Of a stretch of DNA of 64,000 nucleotides, positions 16,222 through 48,332 are shown piece by piece. Source of the DNA: a virus; the IMG/VR virus record IMGVR_UViG_3300023184_000034, positions 64,001 to 128,000 of that record; one strand, written 5' to 3'. Under the pieces are notes generated by a model. That model ran no database searches. It was not told the origin of the DNA and saw only the letters and a program-made list of their open reading frames with translations. The translations under genes and the position numbers were made by a program. Numbering within the stretch: position 1 is the first letter of the stretch; the number at the start of each line of letters is the position of its first letter.

Positions 16222-17405
16222 TACGCTGATTCCGCTTCAAGCTCGTAATAAGCGTACTCGCCAAATGGAGGAACAATAGTGTTATTACCGTGGATGATGA
16301 ATACTGTATCACAGTAGTTTTCATCACCCCAGCTGCCCCAAGGGTAGCCGTCTGTGAACATGATGAACTTTTTAGGTTGAATATCATTAGCTTTCATGTA
16401 TTCCCAATTGGCATCAAACTCAGTACCACCGCCACCTATTGGTTGGTAGCTATCAAACTCATCAATATTGTAACCGTCAAAGTCTGCTTCATTATATACT
16501 CTGGTGTCAAAACACCAAACTTTAATTTTAAAGTCTTTGTATTCTTCCATGATGCCTTTGATCTCTGACAAGAAATCTTTAGCTTGTTCGTCACCAATGG
16601 AACCCGACATGTCAATACCAACACAAATATCAATTGTTTCTTGAAATTGTGTACCAGGAAGTATAGCACTCATGTGCCAACCCTTGCGATTAGGACGCAT
16701 AAACGAATAGTCATTCTTGATAGTGCTTTGGATTTGCTGACGCAAAATTTCACGCCAGTTCATTTTAGGCTCTGTAAGATCTTTAATCATGCGTTGTACA
16801 TTTGCGGGAGTATTTCCCGCACCCGCTGCCTGAGCAGCTTGTATGGTGGCCTCACGTATCTCGTCACGAATTTGTTTCAATTCTTCTTTGCTGTAGCGAG
16901 GTTGACCATCTTTGCCTGGCTCACCCCAGTCAATATGTTCGTCCAGCAATTGACCAAGTGCATCTAATTCTTTTTCATCCATTTCATCATAAATCTGATC
17001 ATACACTTCTTCTGCACCCATGCCGTAGTACTTTTGATCATGGAAGATTTTAATATCCGGAATATTATGATCACCAATACGATCACGCACCAATTGTCCA
17101 TTTACACAATAGTCAGCTGCAATGTTAAAGATTTTAGCATTGCGACTTTCTCGACGACCCATGTGGTCAAATACATTGTGTAAAATTTCATGAGCAATAA
17201 CAAACTCAACTTGCTTTACAGTTAGTTTTTCAAAAAACCCACGATTAAAATAAATATGGCGACCATCAGTGGCTGCTGTGGTCAACCAATCTTCACCTTC
17301 TTGGATTTTCAATCGGGTAGCCATGTTGCCAAAGAATGGATGTTTGAGCAACAAGCTCACTCGTGCAATAATAATTTTATCAATAATTGGATCTGTATGT
17401 GACAT
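16221..17405 (-). CDS. Metallopeptidase + VWA domain protein (DUF2201-like), MoxR partner
   Basis: TAATDG, AHEILH (HExxH), DMSGS MIDAS motif, GGGTEF, FTDGY; start MSHTDP. Confidence 0.85.
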   Translation of the reverse strand: MSHTDPIIDKIIIARVSLLLKHPFFGNMATRLKIQEGEDWLTTAATDGRHIYFNRGFFEKLTVKQVEFVIAHEILHNVFDHMGRRESRNAKIFNIAADYCVNGQLVRDRIGDHNIPDIKIFHDQKYYGMGAEEVYDQIYDEMDEKELDALGQLLDEHIDWGEPGKDGQPRYSKEELKQIRDEIREATIQAAQAAGAGNTPANVQRMIKDLTEPKMNWREILRQQIQSTIKNDYSFMRPNRKGWHMSAILPGTQFQETIDICVGIDMSGSIGDEQAKDFLSEIKGIMEEYKDFKIKVWCFDTRVYNEADFDGYNIDEFDSYQPIGGGGTEFDANWEYMKANDIQPKKFIMFTDGYPWGSWGDENYCDTVFIIHGNNTIVPPFGEYAYYELEAESA

Positions 17406-17434
17406 GTTTGTTCCTAAGTTCTTACTATGTATAT

Positions 17435-17463
17435 AGTATAACACCACCCGAAGGTGGTGTCAA
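17435..17463 (-). promoter_or_regulatory. Sigma70-type promoter whose spacer is a UUCG hairpin
   Basis: Minus strand TTGACA-ccaccttcgggtggtgt(17)-TATACT; hairpin ACACCACC-TTCG-GGTGGTGT. Confidence 0.75.
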
Positions 17464-17479
17464 ACAGTATTAAACCAAT

Positions 17480-18580
17480 TTATTTAGAATCTTTGTCAGT
17501 TGCGGCGCTAATGTACTTGCCAAACTTAGCGTGGAAGTTGTCAAAACATTTAATCTCATCTGGATCTAACGGCAATTTGTATGTGCTCAATGCCAATTTA
17601 GTACCCATAATAACCAATTCTGTTTCAAAGTTGTTCATCATAAATTCGAAGAAATTATTAACTTGCTCGTTCCAATTCTTAGCTTTCTTATCGCAAGAAT
17701 CTTTCAACTCGTAGCACAGGGACACAGTCAACGAGTACATTGCAGAAATTTCTTTAGATTTCATTTCTTTAACTTTGCCATTCAAAATGTCTGTAGGATT
17801 AGGCATTTTGCTGGCGTGTTTACGGTGCGCCATAAATTTAATAGCAAGGCCTTCACCAACGGAACCTGACACCAAATCAGTTAATGTTTCGTTATCACAG
17901 TCGTCGTCGTGCAACAATTCGCTAACAAAGGACCAGCTGCGTGGTGTAGCAAAGGCACGGCTACTGGATTTTGGATCAAAGTCGTACAAGTCCTTTTTGG
18001 AGAAACTCAAGAAGCCAACCACATCCTTGTGAACTTTGTTTTCAGCAGCCCACTCAAAATAGTCATCCCAATTAACTAACATTTCCAAGTGAACAAAACG
18101 ATTAGCCAACGGCGCTGGCATACGGAATGTAACACCTTTGTCAGTTTCTCGGTTGCCTGCTGCAACAATTACAACATTGTCGGGCAAAGTGTATGCACCA
18201 ACTTTACGATTAAGCACCAATTGATATGCAGCTGCTTGAACGCTGGGTGCTGCACTGTTCATTTCATCCAGGAACAAGATAATGTGTTTGTGCTTTTTAG
18301 CCATTTCTTGGCTGGGCAGTTCGCTGGGCGGAGCCCACACCATTGTGTTGGAGTTTGAATCAAAATACGGAATACCTTTAATATCAGTAGGCTCCCACAG
18401 ACTCAAACGTACATCAATCACGTGAGCTTCAATCTCAACGCCAAGTTGTTTGATAATGTCAGACTTACCAATGCCGGGAGGACCCCATAGAAAGATTGGA
18501 CGCTTGTTTTTAAAAGCCTTACGGAGAGACTTTTTGGCGCCGCTTGGGCCCACTGTACGGCCTGAAATATCTGTTGCCAT
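17480..18580 (-). CDS. MoxR-like AAA+ ATPase
   Basis: GPPGIGKS Walker A, LFLDE Walker B, AAGN, PLANRF; start MATDISG lies downstream of the promoter. Confidence 0.9.
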   Translation of the reverse strand: MATDISGRTVGPSGAKKSLRKAFKNKRPIFLWGPPGIGKSDIIKQLGVEIEAHVIDVRLSLWEPTDIKGIPYFDSNSNTMVWAPPSELPSQEMAKKHKHIILFLDEMNSAAPSVQAAAYQLVLNRKVGAYTLPDNVVIVAAGNRETDKGVTFRMPAPLANRFVHLEMLVNWDDYFEWAAENKVHKDVVGFLSFSKKDLYDFDPKSSSRAFATPRSWSFVSELLHDDDCDNETLTDLVSGSVGEGLAIKFMAHRKHASKMPNPTDILNGKVKEMKSKEISAMYSLTVSLCYELKDSCDKKAKNWNEQVNNFFEFMMNNFETELVIMGTKLALSTYKLPLDPDEIKCFDNFHAKFGKYISAATDKDSK

Positions 18581-40141: not shown

Positions 40142-41902
40142 TTATTTCACAGAGCATTTGGGAACAGACATTCCGTTCTTGGTTTGCATACCTGTTTGTG
40201 TTTGCCCAGTTCGACAAACACTTGTTTTTGTTCTGGGTTTGATTGTTTTGGGCCTGGTTGATTTAACCGGCTGCAACATCTCTTCTTTTGTTAGTCTGGC
40301 CAGTTTGTTGGCTTCTTTGATTGGATTTTTTTCTTGAGATTGTTTCTCTTGTTTTTCTTTCCATTCTTTTTCAAATTCTGCTTTGGCTTGTCTAGCACGT
40401 TCAGCACTGGCTGTTGATTTGGCCTGCTCACGATCCCACGCACGGCTCAGTTTCACCTGTGCAGACATGCCTTCGTTGGGCATGATACCAGGCGCACCTG
40501 CTCCTGGTTTGAATCCCATGCTGTGTCCGGGAATTTCATTCTCTGCTACACTTTTCTTTTTCTTCTTGGCAATAGCAATGGCAGCTTGTTGTGCAGGATT
40601 GGCCGCTTCTTTCATCATCACACGTTCAGCAATCACAGTGGCATATTGATTGATCAAGTTGCGTTTTTGTACATGTTGTTCTGCAATCTCAGATTCCACT
40701 TGGTGAAAGTACTTGCCCAAGATGTTTTCACGTTCAATTGGTTCAAATACATGTGGTGTTTCTTCTTGGGGTGTTTGATAGTGTTGCATGGCCATTTGTA
40801 CTGGCAGTGTGACTTTGTGTGGACTTTTGCCTTCTTTTAAAATACCAACATTATTCTTATTTACAATAGATAAAAACTTATTTAGATTGTTTTCCTGTAC
40901 AGGAACAGTCTGTTGTGCTTTTTGTTTTTGTAATTCTGCTTGTGCTGGAGTCATTCTTAGTTTTTGATCATATTTCCAACCAGGAGTAAATATTCCGTCA
41001 GGTTGTTGCATGAATCTAGCGTTAGCTTGTTTTTCAAATTCTTTATGTTGAGCACGATTAAATTCCGCGTCTGGGGATTTGTCATCGATGTTTGATAGAC
41101 CAATTGATTGATCAATTGCATATTCTTTACCTTCTGGGGTTCCTAACATACGTTGAATTAGTTCCCAGTCATCTTTAACAAATGCAGGTTGTTTAAAATT
41201 AGGATCAGCTTGTCTTGCTTGATAGTAAGAACCACTTAATGCCATCATCAAATCAGCAAAGTCACTACCACCTTTCCATGCACCGATGCGTGTTGGGTCT
41301 GACGTAGAAGGATGTGCCCCATCAATAATGTCTGCAGGATGTTTGTAATTCTTTTTAAAGAAATCAATACTTGGTACTTGATATTTTGCTGGATCAACTT
41401 GTGGCGTAGTAGGTGCTGCTGTAGCAGGCGCTGCAGGTTGATTTATTTCAGCTTCTTTAACAATTTGAAGTAAATTTCTCATCCCAACATCTTCTAAATA
41501 TTTTTTAGCAAGCTCTGCGTGTGGCGTTCCGCCTGCTACTAAATCGGCATGCTCTTTTTGTCTTGCCTGTTCCCACGCTTGTAAGTTAGGTCCTGCTAGT
41601 TTTTCAGCAGCCGCTTTTAGCTTATCAATCTCGGTCCTAGCGTCTGCACTAACACCGACCTCGACTGGAACAAGATTGCCGGAGCCCGTTGCTTCTTTTT
41701 CTAGGAAATCATACTTCCCCATTAGTTCTTGATACCTTTCCCAGTTAGGATTCGAGTAGTTAGGACCAGTTGGATCTGCTTGGGGTGGTTGATTTAACTC
41801 AGCTTCTTGAACCACTTGAAGAAATTTCCTCATACTGTTGGCATCAACTGCTGGGTTAGCAGCCACACTGTCCAACTTCTGAAGTAATTTCGCCATGTCC
41901 AT
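40142..41902 (-). CDS. 586-aa putative internal virion polyprotein
   Basis: Repeated helix-E tags MRKFLQVVQEAELNQP, MRNLLQIVKEAEINQP, LNKFLSIV..ILKEG; many x-x-E sites. Confidence 0.6.
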   Translation of the reverse strand: MDMAKLLQKLDSVAANPAVDANSMRKFLQVVQEAELNQPPQADPTGPNYSNPNWERYQELMGKYDFLEKEATGSGNLVPVEVGVSADARTEIDKLKAAAEKLAGPNLQAWEQARQKEHADLVAGGTPHAELAKKYLEDVGMRNLLQIVKEAEINQPAAPATAAPTTPQVDPAKYQVPSIDFFKKNYKHPADIIDGAHPSTSDPTRIGAWKGGSDFADLMMALSGSYYQARQADPNFKQPAFVKDDWELIQRMLGTPEGKEYAIDQSIGLSNIDDKSPDAEFNRAQHKEFEKQANARFMQQPDGIFTPGWKYDQKLRMTPAQAELQKQKAQQTVPVQENNLNKFLSIVNKNNVGILKEGKSPHKVTLPVQMAMQHYQTPQEETPHVFEPIERENILGKYFHQVESEIAEQHVQKRNLINQYATVIAERVMMKEAANPAQQAAIAIAKKKKKSVAENEIPGHSMGFKPGAGAPGIMPNEGMSAQVKLSRAWDREQAKSTASAERARQAKAEFEKEWKEKQEKQSQEKNPIKEANKLARLTKEEMLQPVKSTRPKTIKPRTKTSVCRTGQTQTGMQTKNGMSVPKCSVK

Positions 41903-41906
41903 GTTG

Positions 41907-43934
41907 TTAGCCTTTTACCGGTGTAAGTGATCCGGATATACTCTGTAGAATTTGAGGGCCGATATTACCAGCACCTGTACTGGTATTTACAACCACTACC
42001 AAGATCATGTCATTGACATTGAAACTTTGATTGGCCGAAAAAACTGTACCGTTTTTTGATGGTATACGTTCGTTGCTGGTCTTTATTCCAGGATGATTCC
42101 AAGTTCTGTAGTGTCTGCCTGTACTGAGTTTTGTGTTGTAGTACAACTGGGGGGCAATCAAAATAAAATCCTTACTGAGCATGCCTTGTTTGCGATAAGC
42201 ATAGACCCAATCCATATTTACATTTACTGCGCCTTCGTCTCCATTTTTACTGAATTGACTAGCATCTACTTGTTTGTATCCTGGTATTGTAGGAGCCCCA
42301 TCAGGCAGTTTTATAGATTTTTGTTGTTCAACAGCACAACCACCGTTACTAATAAATTTACTCTCTATCTTTTGTAACTTTATCAGCATTGGCCTTGTTA
42401 ACTGCTGACGGAGTTGCGCTGGAATTATCCAATTGCCAACTCCATTTCTTACGTGAAACGGTGTGGGAATCCACATACCGTTGGGATCTAGATAGCCAAA
42501 GTCCGGTGCAGGTTTGACACCCGCCGGCCATGTTTTAGGATCTTCAGGGTCAGAATTAGGACCAGCGGTTGATCCAGTTTGACCACCGGCGGCGCCAGCG
42601 GCGCCAGCGGCACCTACAGCACCCACGATTGCTGGCAATTGACCAGACATGGCCTTGTCTTTAAGATCTTCTATACCGTCTATTGTTGCTTTTATATCTA
42701 ATTTTAAATCGGCACTGGTGGTAGTTAGTCCGAAATAACGCACAAGTACGGGCAGTTGTTTTTTGATTGTATCAACATCTTCTTTTGATAAAACTCCAGA
42801 CTGTATGGCTTGAGCAACGCCGCCGCCATCTGCACCTGCACCTGCACCTGCCTCGGCGCCACCGTCGAATCCCGCCACGCCTCCGGTGGGTTTATCTTCT
42901 GGTTTTTCTTCTGTGTTATTCCACCAGTCCCATAATGCTTTACCACCTTCATATGCTCCCCATCCGGTCAATGCTGCACCGCCAATCTTGGGCAAGGCAG
43001 CACGAATTGGATTACGGGCTTTAAACGCAAGTGATCGTCTAGCCAGTGACTGGGCTGTTGTTCTGGCTGCTGTTCTAGCGCCTGCTGTGGCACCCGGACC
43101 CATTCTGAACATTCTACCAAGTCCCTTTATTAACGGAGCAATAAATTCATTCAGTTGTTCTGGCTTGTTTTCAACTAAAATAGTAAAAATTCTAATTTGT
43201 TCAGCAGGTGAAAATTCATGTAGGTTCTCAGATATCATCCTACGTTTGAGATTATTTCTACTTTCTGTTGTTACATTATATTTTTTAAGAATATTTTTTA
43301 ATTGAGTTAATGCCGTGGCTAATTCAGCTGGTGGACCAATATCTTTTTCTGGATCTCCTGTTTTTCCTCGAAGCTTGGCATCTGCAGCACCAATATCTTT
43401 TTCTGGATCTCCTGATTTACCCCAAGGTTTGACACCTGCAGCACCAATATCTTTTTCTGGATCTCCTGATTTACCCCAAGGTTTGACATCTGCAGCACCA
43501 ATATCTTTTTCTGGATCTCCTGATTTACCCCAAGGTTTGTCGCCCATGTTTGATGGCTTGTTAGTACTGGTGGGAAGTTCTTCTGCCATAGGGTGTTGTG
43601 GTGGGATACCAAATCCCACTTCACCGTCTGTGGCACCTGCATCACTGGTTTTAGTTGCGGATAATTTTTGAAAATCTTTAGGACTTACAATTATTTTACC
43701 ACCGCCTTCTAAACCAGCAATAATACTACCAGCTGATGAGATGCTTATTTTTCTAAATCCTTGAGATAGAGCCTTTGTTTCAACATCTGGGGTAAGTTCA
43801 AACCATAGTTTACTTGGTTCAACTGGAGTTAAGCCGTTGCCACTTTTGACCATGGGCTTGCCGCCCTGCATGGTTATGTAGTAAGGAGCCTCTCCTTCAG
43901 CTATGAATTTAGAAACAATATCTTTTACACGCAT
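41907..43934 (-). CDS. 675-aa putative internal virion polyprotein
   Basis: N-terminal tag MRVKDIVSKFIAEG; 18-aa tandem repeats; amphipathic segment after LNE. Confidence 0.6.
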   Translation of the reverse strand: MRVKDIVSKFIAEGEAPYYITMQGGKPMVKSGNGLTPVEPSKLWFELTPDVETKALSQGFRKISISSAGSIIAGLEGGGKIIVSPKDFQKLSATKTSDAGATDGEVGFGIPPQHPMAEELPTSTNKPSNMGDKPWGKSGDPEKDIGAADVKPWGKSGDPEKDIGAAGVKPWGKSGDPEKDIGAADAKLRGKTGDPEKDIGPPAELATALTQLKNILKKYNVTTESRNNLKRRMISENLHEFSPAEQIRIFTILVENKPEQLNEFIAPLIKGLGRMFRMGPGATAGARTAARTTAQSLARRSLAFKARNPIRAALPKIGGAALTGWGAYEGGKALWDWWNNTEEKPEDKPTGGVAGFDGGAEAGAGAGADGGGVAQAIQSGVLSKEDVDTIKKQLPVLVRYFGLTTTSADLKLDIKATIDGIEDLKDKAMSGQLPAIVGAVGAAGAAGAAGGQTGSTAGPNSDPEDPKTWPAGVKPAPDFGYLDPNGMWIPTPFHVRNGVGNWIIPAQLRQQLTRPMLIKLQKIESKFISNGGCAVEQQKSIKLPDGAPTIPGYKQVDASQFSKNGDEGAVNVNMDWVYAYRKQGMLSKDFILIAPQLYYNTKLSTGRHYRTWNHPGIKTSNERIPSKNGTVFSANQSFNVNDMILVVVVNTSTGAGNIGPQILQSISGSLTPVKG
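43335..43539. repeat. 54-bp tandem repeat, about 3.8 copies
   Basis: accaatatctttttctggatctcctg recurs at 43335, 43389, 43443 and 43497; encodes KPWGKSGDPEKDIGAADV. Confidence 0.92.
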
Positions 43935-45578: not shown

Positions 45579-46595
45579 TTAGCGTCGTTTGATAGGCGGC
45601 CCACCAAATAAGCTAGCGCCTTTGATGTCCAAGCCGTTCTTGGCTGTGCCGTCTTTGTTTTTGGGTTGATTAACTTTGGGTTGCGGTGGTGCCTTGCTGC
45701 CTGATTTGCCAGGACTACCAATATAACTCTTTTTACCACGTGCTTTGCCAGGGCTCAAATGCGGTGCATCTACCGTGCCAATGTTAGCAGCACTGGTTGC
45801 ACCCACGGTGGCTGACTCACCCATTGGTTTGCCTTCCGCCACACCTTGCTCTTTACTTTTCTTCAGTATATCAGGATGTGCGAAACCTTTTTTGACTTGT
45901 TCTGCCGGACTCATCTTATCAACTAACTTACCAAGTTTAGGATCAACATCATGCCAAGTCTTTGGATAGGGCTTTTTATCACCTCCCGCCACACCTTTGT
46001 TTCCTTTTGCCATTTTCAATGAGGTTTTTAGTGCTGCCGTTTTTCCTCTAGGAGTTTTAGCATCATTTGCGGTATCTGCTCTGCGTTGAAGTGGATCGTA
46101 CCCAAACTTTGGGCTATTAGGATTGCGCGGTGTTTTGTTGCCTTCGTCATCTACATCATACGCATCTGGATCGCTACGCCATTTAGCAGCCTCCGCCACA
46201 CCTTGCTCACCATGCTTTTTAGCACGACGAATTCTATTTGCTAAATGATGTAATCCAGACTCCATACTACGTGCTTTACGCTCTCCAGCAGATAAATTTT
46301 GCTCACGATCCGCATATTGCCAATCTGATCCACCTAATGCTTCGTATTCTTTTTTCATTTTTGCATATTCAGCTTCGAGGTGCGGAAGATCTGCGTGGTC
46401 CTGTGCTTGGTCATCTTGAGATTTTTGATGTGCTACTGCTCTATCTGTTTCACGTTTTTCAGAATCTTGTCTGCGTAACTCATCGTGCTCTGGATCACCG
46501 TGGATACGTAGATTTTTAAATTTAGGATTATTTTTTTGTAAATCTTTAAGAAACGAAGACATATCGTTTTCTTGTACTAACTCATTTATTTTCAT
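45579..46595 (-). CDS. 338-aa putative internal virion protein made of cassettes joined at GVAE/GVAG motifs
   Basis: N-terminal tag MKINELVQE; three AAGGTGTGGCGG-encoded junctions. Confidence 0.65.
   Translation of the reverse strand: MKINELVQENDMSSFLKDLQKNNPKFKNLRIHGDPEHDELRRQDSEKRETDRAVAHQKSQDDQAQDHADLPHLEAEYAKMKKEYEALGGSDWQYADREQNLSAGERKARSMESGLHHLANRIRRAKKHGEQGVAEAAKWRSDPDAYDVDDEGNKTPRNPNSPKFGYDPLQRRADTANDAKTPRGKTAALKTSLKMAKGNKGVAGGDKKPYPKTWHDVDPKLGKLVDKMSPAEQVKKGFAHPDILKKSKEQGVAEGKPMGESATVGATSAANIGTVDAPHLSPGKARGKKSYIGSPGKSGSKAPPQPKVNQPKNKDGTAKNGLDIKGASLFGGPPIKRR
45836..46204 (-). repeat. Three identical 12-bp motifs AAGGTGTGGCGG with unrelated in-frame spacers
   Basis: CCGCCACACCTT starts at 45836, 45986 and 46193 (periods 150 and 207 bp); copies 1 and 3 share GAGCAAGGTGTGGCGGA. 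Confidence 0.85.
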
Positions 46596-46822
46596 TTTTT
46601 AATTCCTCTAAATCCTGTGCCTACAGCAACTTCACCACCCATGAACTTGGGCAAACTAAACCATAACTTAAACCATTCTTCGGTTCCGGGTTTGATATTC
46701 TGCTCACGCATTATAACTGCTTTTTCAGTACCAGTTACACTGATGTTGCTTCCGTCATAAGGTTGCAGGCCTTTAAATTCCTTAATGCCTGCTAACTTTT
46801 TAAGACGTGCTAATTCATCCAT
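46592..46822 (-). CDS. Small phage protein beginning MDELARLKKLAG
   Basis: NIKPGTEEWFKLWF segment; coupled to dps by TAATG. Confidence 0.65.
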   Translation of the reverse strand: MDELARLKKLAGIKEFKGLQPYDGSNISVTGTEKAVIMREQNIKPGTEEWFKLWFSLPKFMGGEVAVGTGFRGIKK

Positions 46823-47259
46823 TATTTCAAACTGGACCTTAACATCCAGCTGTGCTTTTTATGTGCATCTTGGCGATCTGCTAAAAAGTTACTCAACCCA
46901 TGATCTCCAGCTTGTTCAGCCATGTCAAATGTGATGCGGAATATATTAGCCATACGCTCGCTATCTTCTAACAACTCACTCAGCATGCCACTCCAATCAG
47001 GCACAGCGTTTTCATCTTCAACTTTGGTAAGCATACTGAACTTGGCTAGGCTTGCTGGTGTGTAAATCTGTAATGCACGTAGGTGTTCCGCAAATGGATC
47101 CACAGCACCATATACTTCTTCATATATGGTTTGAAATAAGTTGTGCAGTTGAGCAAACAACGGACCCTCCACATTCCAATGGAAATTATGTGCTTTTAAA
47201 TAAAAACTAAATTCGCTGGCAAACGCTGTTTTCAATGCCAAGTGATATTTCTCGTCCAT
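46822..47259 (-). CDS. dps: Dps ferritin-like DNA protection protein
   Basis: KAHNFHWNVEG..F..LH..F...Y, D..AE, HKKHSWML. Confidence 0.92.
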   Translation of the reverse strand: MDEKYHLALKTAFASEFSFYLKAHNFHWNVEGPLFAQLHNLFQTIYEEVYGAVDPFAEHLRALQIYTPASLAKFSMLTKVEDENAVPDWSGMLSELLEDSERMANIFRITFDMAEQAGDHGLSNFLADRQDAHKKHSWMLRSSLK

Positions 47260-47261
47260 GA

Positions 47262-48332
47262 TTAAATTCCGTATTTGTTCTTTTTAATTTTTGCCACTGC
47301 ACTGGTTTTATTAACATCAGCAGTTTCTAAACTTCGATTGTTACTCCATGTCTGTCGCTTACCGCCACCTACTTGTTTAGCGGCAGCATTGATCATATCG
47401 TTTTCTTCTTCAGTGTAGGGTGCTAGTAATGGATCTCCACCGATCCAATTGTCTGCTTCAATTTTTGTGGGATAATCAGGAGCACCTGCCAATGCAATAC
47501 CCATCCTGTACCCCATATATGCACTACCAGTACTTTGATTCATTGAAGGAAATGTTGTTGCATTTTTAATTGCGGCCTTATGATGTCCGTGCATCTTTTG
47601 TGTGCCACCGTGACCTTCTCTTAATGATCTTGCCAACGCATTGGCTTCCTTCAAAGATACATCTGGTTCGGCTTTTTCTTTTTTTGCTCGCACCTTGGGC
47701 TTGCTGAAATCTTGCATGCGTGTTTGTGCTTTTTGCATCAAATCTCTTACTTCGTCATCATCCAGTTCGGGGTTCATTGCATCACGCCAAACAGCAAACT
47801 TTTCGTCATCACTCTTGCTTGGATCCATTAACACATCTCGCATGGGCGTGGCACGTGGCCCTTCTTGTTCACGACTTGGATCGTTGGTTTCTTGACGAGC
47901 AATCACATTTAAACTGTTAAAACTAAACGGAATTCTGCCAGCTTTGTCTGGAACTCCGTTATACTGCTTGACATAACTTAAACCTTTGACTTGATCTTCT
48001 CCCACTACCACAGTTACATCAGTATAACCGTGATGGTCGAGTTTTGTTAACACACGAGTTAAATCAGGCATATCATCTGTGGCAGTGTGAAAAATATGTC
48101 CGTGAGCTGGAAATACTTTTTTATAAATCTGCATTTTTTCTTCTGGCTTGATTGGATCGTCTTTGCCCACTGTGCGGCTAACAACAAAGTAAGGATCAGC
48201 ACCTTGTTCGTCTGCTTGTGTGATAACACTGCTGGCCAGATACATGTGACCTTTGTGACCCATGCCACGCCCCCAGCCCACCACAGCAGCTTTGCCTTCC
48301 CCAGTGCGATTAAGAAATTCACGTAACAACAT
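47262..48332 (-). CDS. HIGH-superfamily (cytidylyltransferase-like) nucleotidyltransferase with an extra C-terminal domain
   Basis: VVGWGRGMGHKGH, VVVGEDQ, YNG, RATPMR; N-terminal tag MLLREFL. Confidence 0.7.
   Translation of the reverse strand: MLLREFLNRTGEGKAAVVGWGRGMGHKGHMYLASSVITQADEQGADPYFVVSRTVGKDDPIKPEEKMQIYKKVFPAHGHIFHTATDDMPDLTRVLTKLDHHGYTDVTVVVGEDQVKGLSYVKQYNGVPDKAGRIPFSFNSLNVIARQETNDPSREQEGPRATPMRDVLMDPSKSDDEKFAVWRDAMNPELDDDEVRDLMQKAQTRMQDFSKPKVRAKKEKAEPDVSLKEANALARSLREGHGGTQKMHGHHKAAIKNATTFPSMNQSTGSAYMGYRMGIALAGAPDYPTKIEADNWIGGDPLLAPYTEEENDMINAAAKQVGGGKRQTWSNNRSLETADVNKTSAVAKIKKNKYGI

Follow-up and report, generated by a model that had tools for sequence, protein, structure and literature searches.

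The cassette gene and its four modules

The window analyzed here is a stretch of 64,000 nucleotides (positions 64,001 to 128,000 of IMG/VR virus record IMGVR_UViG_3300023184_000034) from an uncultured giant T4-like phage. On its minus strand lies an open reading frame (ORF) of 338 amino acids, P0001 (45579..46595), whose translation reads as a putative modular cargo protein. Three copies of a 12-nucleotide DNA sequence divide this ORF into modules A, B, C, and D. P0001 belongs to no Pfam or PHROG family, and the ESM Atlas offers no more than unnamed viral clusters and a model of low confidence for it. Neither the locus (megablast) nor the protein (tblastn) matches any of 50,697 cultured-phage records. 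A protein search yields 530 relatives, which mostly match sub-segments of P0001, and the borders of these segments are the three GVAE junctions. The gene is a small, clean example of a four-module arrangement, with near-identical orthologues that differ from it by one or two cassettes.

The protein begins with the leader MKINELVQE (46569..46595, minus strand, as are all features of this gene), which resembles a T4 capsid targeting sequence and has a hydrophobic-x-Glu end. A single-sequence AlphaFold prediction has a mean pLDDT of 64, with modules A and C helical and modules B and D disordered. Module A (residues 1-135; 46191..46595) is predicted to be mostly helical (helices 35-86 and 103-141) and ends in GEQGVAE. 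It also occurs alone with other partners, for example in P0019, P0020, and P0042. Junction 1, between A and B, was located by its match to the motif GAGCAAGGTGTGGCGGA (EQGVAE; 46192..46208). Module B (residues 136-204; 207 nt; 45984..46190) is a mobile cassette for which disorder is predicted through most of the sequence, much of it with pLDDT values <50. At junction 2, between B and C, the motif match is AAGGTGTGGCGG followed by GA (KGVAG; 45986..45997). The Glu is lost here through a GAA to GGA change, which leaves this copy one base off the canonical junction (GVAEG) found at the same place in the orthologues P0002 and P0004. Module C (residues 205-254; 150 nt; 45834..45983) is a small cassette with predicted helices spanning residues 214-250, and junction 3, between C and D, again reads GAGCAAGGTGTGGCGGA (EQGVAE; 45835..45851). 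Module D (residues 255-338; 45582..45833) is a basic, probably disordered C-terminal module (pLDDT 40-50). It lies at the C terminus of many search hits with 76-95% identity and is common to many otherwise different proteins.

Five large polyproteins encoded by relatives produced nothing from PHROG or Pfam. Modules that had been called GNAT-like by eye were dropped, as PHROG and Pfam gave no support for the assignment.

A linker conserved as DNA

The 12-mer AAGGTGTGGCGG occurs without mismatches at 45836-45847, 45986-45997, and 46193-46204, in each case on the minus strand, and nowhere else in the 161,029-base virus record. The outer two copies extend to GAGCAAGGTGTGGCGGA, the spacings are 150 and 207 nt, and all three copies are in frame in P0001, where they encode EQGVAE, NKGVAG, and EQGVAE. 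No other protein of the 161-kb record contains GVAE. A preliminary description of the window had reported the three perfect copies, the outer extensions, the periods, and the lost Glu, and it is right in every detail; the count that it proposed gives, over the 161-kb record, the same three copies, all in P0001. Its remark that GCG is uncommon is also correct: across the long ORFs of the genome, this codon encodes 7% of alanines. The description further listed a near-match at 42872. This sequence exists (GAGGCGTGGCGG, encoding GGVAG in a 675-aa ORF), but it was left out as a member of the array because matches to the 12-mer with two or fewer mismatches are not clearly above chance (7 versus 3.5 ± 1.6 expected, with 4 of 100 shuffles reaching 7).

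Codon use at the junctions was assessed in 32 unique examples that had been found via protein similarity rather than via the DNA motif, and the background for each codon is its share among codons for the same amino acid in the same ORFs. The glycine codon is GGT at all 32 junctions (background 44%), valine is encoded by GTG at 27 of 32 (19%), alanine by GCG at 31 of 32 (7%), and glutamate by GAA at 30 of 32 (80%). All four canonical codons appear together at 24 of the 32 junctions, compared with a background of 0.5%. At P5, which may be Q, K, or E, the codon is NAA in 98-100% of cases. The two glycines of the linker are encoded differently (GGT and GGC), and both codons are kept. Thus, the proposal that the silent sites of GVAE codons are conserved is borne out, and third positions of the linker are approximately as conserved as first and second positions. 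Binomial P values overstate the independence of these observations because the junction sites are related by descent, yet the direction of the codon result is unambiguous despite this shared ancestry.

The same 16-18 nt of linker DNA (CAA GGT GTG GCG GAA GGC) is present in many phages. Exact matches to the 16-mer and to the 18-mer CAAGGTGTGGCGGAAGGC each occur in at least 120 IMG/VR contigs. There are often two to four copies per gene, with spacings divisible by three, and 171 of 175 motif matches read GVAE in frame. In contrast, a reversed control sequence is found in 46 contigs, always as a single match. A synonymous control composed of preferred codons is found in 108 contigs, nearly always as single matches and mostly in ORFs that have one GVAE site. 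Nearly complete genomes of relatives (300-374 kb) carry one to four motif copies each, all on one strand. No description of this linker was found in the literature searched. The linker represents a rare clean case in which silent coding sites are subject to selection or homogenization.

Gain, loss, and exchange of modules among relatives

Two near-identical orthologues of P0001 have fewer modules: P0006 consists of A+D, and P0002 of A+B+D. At the DNA level, contigs L342 and L343 (98.6% identity) are without exactly 357 nt (B+C) between two 17-mers, and contig L344 (96.4% identity) is without exactly 150 nt (C) between two 12-mers. On the left, the 357-nt indel ends at junction 1 and the 150-nt indel at junction 2; on the right, both end at junction 3. 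The ends fall inside the repeats, such that each shortened orthologue retains one junction that is a chimera of the left and right flanks. Contigs that share a 99%-identical cassette of 220 nt could be chimeric across it. This concern is countered by the A+D form, which was assembled independently in three samples.

Individual cassettes recur in unrelated genes. Cassette B has 99.1-99.6% DNA identity to contigs L010 and L013 and 97.7% to L014, and this identity extends from junction to junction only, within unrelated ORFs of 706, 668, and 775 amino acids; the left end of the 99%-identical cassette in L010 and L013 is junction 1. Contig L010 is syntenic with the window but diverged, with protein identities of 47% for a Dps-like protein and 63-68% for DNA polymerase. 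Because cassette B is 99% identical despite these diverged neighbors, it must be far younger than the genomes that carry it. A codon alignment of the B module comprises only six unique sequences, all 84-99% identical, and is therefore uninformative on how silent divergence in the module compares with that in the linker. Cassette C has 91% DNA identity to contig L049, again from junction to junction, and occurs in P0023 and P0065 in a different module order. Module D and the downstream gene have 90% DNA identity to contigs L011 and L012 beginning directly after junction 3, and the L011/L012 orthologue has a different module in its N-terminal part. These modules recur in further phages, differently ordered and combined with unrelated partners, and a single ORF can contain up to seven junctions.

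These examples agree with a count of breakpoints in segments of at least 90% identity that are common to 200 junction-bearing ORFs. Of 262 internal segment ends, 57% lie within 15 nt of the motif, compared with 4% for random positions. Collectively, the genome comparisons show that modules are exchanged at the linker. The indels, the variable module orders, and the recurrence in unrelated genes uphold the earlier proposal that the motif is an in-frame cassette border, and spacers indeed vary in number and order between orthologues and recur in unrelated genes. The preliminary description had also reasoned that random synonymous codons at the junctions and fixed spacer content in orthologues would speak against it; neither pattern is seen, because the silent sites at junctions are conserved and cassette content varies.

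A candidate protease site and T4-type head genes

Position-by-position analysis separates protein-level from DNA-level constraint on the linker. Among 559 linker-like sites, the second base of the P3 codon is T in 99.1% of cases (V, M, L, or I), and the GA of the Glu codon is kept in 98-99.8% and is always followed by a purine. These are the most constrained positions of the linker, with more variation at P2 and P4. Cleavage by the T4 prohead protease gp21 is known to follow the rule L/I-X-E (PMC9026906). The genome examined here encodes a gp21-family protease (gene at G000:C1:18770-19402; Peptidase_S77, PF03420, at G000:C1:18899-19366; 89.5 bits) and a gp23-family capsid protein (PF07068 at 16516-17490; 270 bits), the pair that marks a T4-type head. 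The N terminus encoded by the capsid gene (G000:C1:16474-17646, minus strand) carries LLE|G and LME|S.

The hydrophobic-x-Glu pattern of the linker matches the gp21 rule, which suggests that cleavage would occur after the Glu. An earlier suggestion that V-A-E is a protease site is thus in agreement with the gp21 rule, with the presence of a gp21-type gene, and with the constrained positions; the cleavage itself we infer. If the linker is processed in this manner, the single base change that removed Glu from the middle junction means that B and C would stay joined.

Leaders similar to MKINELVQE are present, as judged by eye, in neighboring genes and in most complete junction-bearing ORFs elsewhere, and a strict leader pattern matches 41 of 106 complete ORFs. 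By analogy with the capsid targeting sequence (CTS) concept (PMC9026906), the leader of P0001 may target the protein to the capsid.

The start of module D bears a likeness to the capsid protein. Its first 21 residues (residues 255-275; 45771-45833, minus strand) follow the junction as KPMGE|SATVGATSAANIGTVD, and the N terminus of the capsid protein past the propeptide site is KYLME|SPTTGATSAGNVATLN. In this single comparison, the two have 52% identity (E = 8e-4). It is possible that module D contains an additional cut site (MGE|S) and mimics the N-terminal arm of the capsid protein.

Proposed mechanism and alternative explanations

We consider it fairly probable that P0001 is a cargo polyprotein whose cleavage linker doubles as a homology patch for in-frame recombination. 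According to this model, P0001 would be a capsid-cargo polyprotein of a giant T4-related phage, loaded into the prohead by its T4-CTS-like leader. The gp21-type head protease would then cut after the Glu in each (Q/K)GVAE|G linker and thereby release A, B-C (fused due to the lost middle Glu), and D as separate internal proteins that may eventually be injected. At the DNA level, the linker would act as a portable identity patch by which whole modules are deleted, inserted, or swapped in frame. The exchange would presumably be carried out by the general replication and recombination machinery of the phage, both within one genome and between co-infecting, otherwise diverged phages. Cassettes with intact flanking linkers would keep moving, which would keep the linker DNA uniform.

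When the genome is compared with diverged syntenic relatives over 7-13 kb, including the DNA polymerase gene, the linkers rank among the longest exactly matching tracts (17-24 nt) and are therefore the best available patches for short-homology recombination. Small homology patches of under 50 bp suffice for recombination in T4, according to Singer (1982) as cited in PMC2839356. A linker of 16-18 nt is at the short end of this range, which counts against the homology-patch reading. Moreover, because complete relatives carry so few motif copies, exchange within a genome must be rare. The argument that recombination is what conserves the linker is weak, since it invokes second-order selection, and it leaves some probability for a sequence-specific factor or an RNA-level role. 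No member of the RecA/UvsX family was found in the 161-kb record, which is 44% complete, and this result is uninformative either way.

Several other explanations are conceivable. The trivial one is a chance repeat, a recent local duplication, or an assembly artifact of no wider meaning. It draws on the fact that this genome has three copies only, and we assign it a negligible probability: the three spacers are mutually unrelated, the contig scans set at least 120 motif-bearing contigs against 46 single matches for the reversed control, and three independent samples yielded the same indel form. These scans, the three-sample recovery, and the repeat-bounded indels refute this reading. A different type of explanation places the constraint on RNA. 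Silent sites could serve the mRNA or its translation, for example as a Shine-Dalgarno-like AAGGUG pause or an RNase site, and module borders would coincide with the motif as linkers separate domains. The motif does hold AGGUG, which as read from the sequence is complementary to the 3′ end of 16S rRNA, and it always reads in frame on the sense strand. However, there is no start codon at a fixed distance after the motif, and an RNA-level role leaves unexplained why indels end inside repeats, why DNA of 99% identity ends at the motif, and why 57% of breakpoints are located there. We therefore regard this explanation as very unlikely.

The remaining alternatives invoke a dedicated enzyme. The preliminary description likened the array to an integron within a coding sequence, in which a site-specific recombinase would recognize the motif, excise circles, and insert them at other copies. 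The precise cassette borders and the constant motif fit this idea, and promoter-early stem-loop (PeSL) cassettes, which form mini-circles, were compared with integrons by the authors who studied them (PMC2839356). However, ordinary recombination produces the PeSL circles, and no integrase is involved (PMC2839356). The earlier observation that no recombinase is visible in the window extends to the whole 161-kb record (44% complete), which contains neither Phage_integrase (PF00589) nor Resolvase (PF00239). Nor does the motif form a hairpin or palindrome as attC does: in 72-nt windows at the three motifs, folding z scores relative to shuffles are −1.6, +1.25, and −0.05, with the motif unpaired or inconsistently paired. 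Together with the one to four copies per genome, these findings make the integron mechanism highly improbable, and the term "integron" applies only as an analogy, because no integrase and no attC-like hairpin were found. Recombination at short identities explains the data without a dedicated enzyme.

Alternatively, a sequence-specific nuclease, either nicking or resembling a homing endonuclease, might cleave the 16-nt motif, with the neighboring cassette then copied in when the break is repaired from a co-infecting phage. T4-type phages are rich in homing nucleases, and the near-invariance of 16 nt, including silent sites, resembles that of a recognition site. We nevertheless judge this scenario quite unlikely, given that the junction genes have no linked nuclease gene in any of the loci examined and that many decayed motif variants persist in frame. 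More generally, it seems unlikely that the 16-nt linker is the recognition site of any dedicated phage factor, be it nuclease or recombinase, and hence part of a true site-specific, frame-preserving system. If such a factor did exist, an "intragenic integron" would allow giant T4-like phages to assemble and trade injected anti-defense cargo.

Comparison with known systems

Shuffling at conserved motifs is already known in T4-type phages from PeSLs and gp38 motifs. We prefer to view the linker as a likely in-frame, intragenic counterpart of these elements. Like the linker, PeSLs are short conserved DNA sequences that flank variable units (PMC2839356; PMC4122927). Close relatives differ by a whole unit, one chimeric element remains, and ordinary recombination acts at the repeat. 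PeSLs lie between genes, span ∼100 bp, and combine a sigma-70-like promoter with a terminator hairpin, and the units they move are whole ORFs. The linker, in contrast, is 16-18 nt long, forms no stem-loop, and moves protein modules in frame; with 171 of 175 matches in frame within ORFs, it is no PeSL in the strict sense.

T4-type phages also swap adhesin segments at the glycine-rich motifs of gp38 (PMC3157838). These motifs and the His-boxes of gp37, for which PMC3157838 cites Tetart et al. (1996, 1998), resemble the linker in permitting in-frame swaps at conserved sequences. Adhesin motifs belong to a fixed structural core with a fixed order in which deletions are not tolerated (PMC3157838), whereas modules bounded by the linker vary freely in number and order, and the linker itself is a probable cleavage site.

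The T-even internal proteins (IPI, IPII, IPIII, and Alt) carry a CTS and are processed by gp21 (PMC9026906; PMC5694885; PMC12373910). The likeness to P0001 includes an apparent short leader ending in hydrophobic-x-Glu, small cargo that is basic or of unknown function, and a repertoire that is hypervariable between relatives. This genome also encodes gp21- and gp23-type proteins. T-even internal proteins are encoded by separate small genes, each with its own leader, whereas the modules described here are parts of one ORF joined by a linker of constant DNA.

Similar to integron cassettes, which depend on IntI and attC, the modules are variable units bounded by a recurring site, in arrays that vary in length and order. 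Unlike integron cassettes, they are parts of one reading frame rather than promoterless genes; an integrase is absent from the 161-kb record (44% complete), and the motif windows fold no better than shuffles.

Outside of viruses, de Chateau and Bjorck (PNAS, 1996) are said to have proposed that interdomain "recer" DNA promotes intron-less, in-frame shuffling of modules in PAB and protein G, which are surface proteins of Gram-positive bacteria, with exchange reportedly occurring between genes and species. Short conserved DNA at module borders is the common feature, and the linker resembles the "recer" class in that the same DNA is found at the borders of unrelated modules and identity breaks there. 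The "recer" sequences are bacterial rather than viral, are not known to have a protease-site role, and are reported from far fewer contexts.

If the proposed mechanism holds, a group of giant phages could rapidly remodel the proteins that they inject. A single short sequence would have two roles, as a protease cut site in the protein and as a frame-preserving crossover point in the DNA, and any module placed between two linkers would be expressed, packaged, and released without further adaptation. Such a natural "plug-and-play" design could be useful for understanding how phage counter-defenses evolve and for engineering the capsid cargo of T4-type phages.

Neighboring genes of the putative cargo locus

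A conserved ORF of 76 amino acids (46592-46825, minus strand; starting ...MDELARLKKLAG) is located directly upstream of the cassette gene and is adjoined by a ferritin/Dps-like gene encoding 145 amino acids (46822-47259, minus strand). The position of both is kept in orthologous contigs and in the diverged contig L345. An HxGH nucleotidyltransferase-like gene (47262-48332, minus strand) stands on its own in this genome, two genes upstream of P0001. In other phages, its distant relatives (25-30% identity; E = 3e-4 and 2e-5) make up the N-terminal module of polyproteins (P0023 and L014:4828-7152), with a GVAE or GVTE linker leading into cassette C or B.

Within a 586-aa ORF (40142..41902), a short module, AANPAQQAAIAIAKKKK (∼40530-40600, minus strand; residues ∼431-455), is flanked by MKE| and SVAE|. 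Polyproteins in L010, L015, and L018 end with the same module, preceded by a GVAE or SVAE linker, and the module includes an exact DNA match of 23 nt to L010. Thus, a second putative cargo gene has cassettes in common with the linker system, but its borders are other x-x-E sequences.

The adjacent 675-aa gene (41907..43934) shares only its first ∼110 residues with the close relative L011/L012, and positions 41917-43609 are mostly dissimilar, whereas its flanks in these contigs have 80-95% protein identity. Judged from these alignments, it is another hypervariable, putative cargo gene of the same locus. Outside the window, the same record also contains two giant ORFs, of 5139 amino acids (G000:C1:43290-58709, plus strand) and 4710 amino acids (135071-149203, minus strand).
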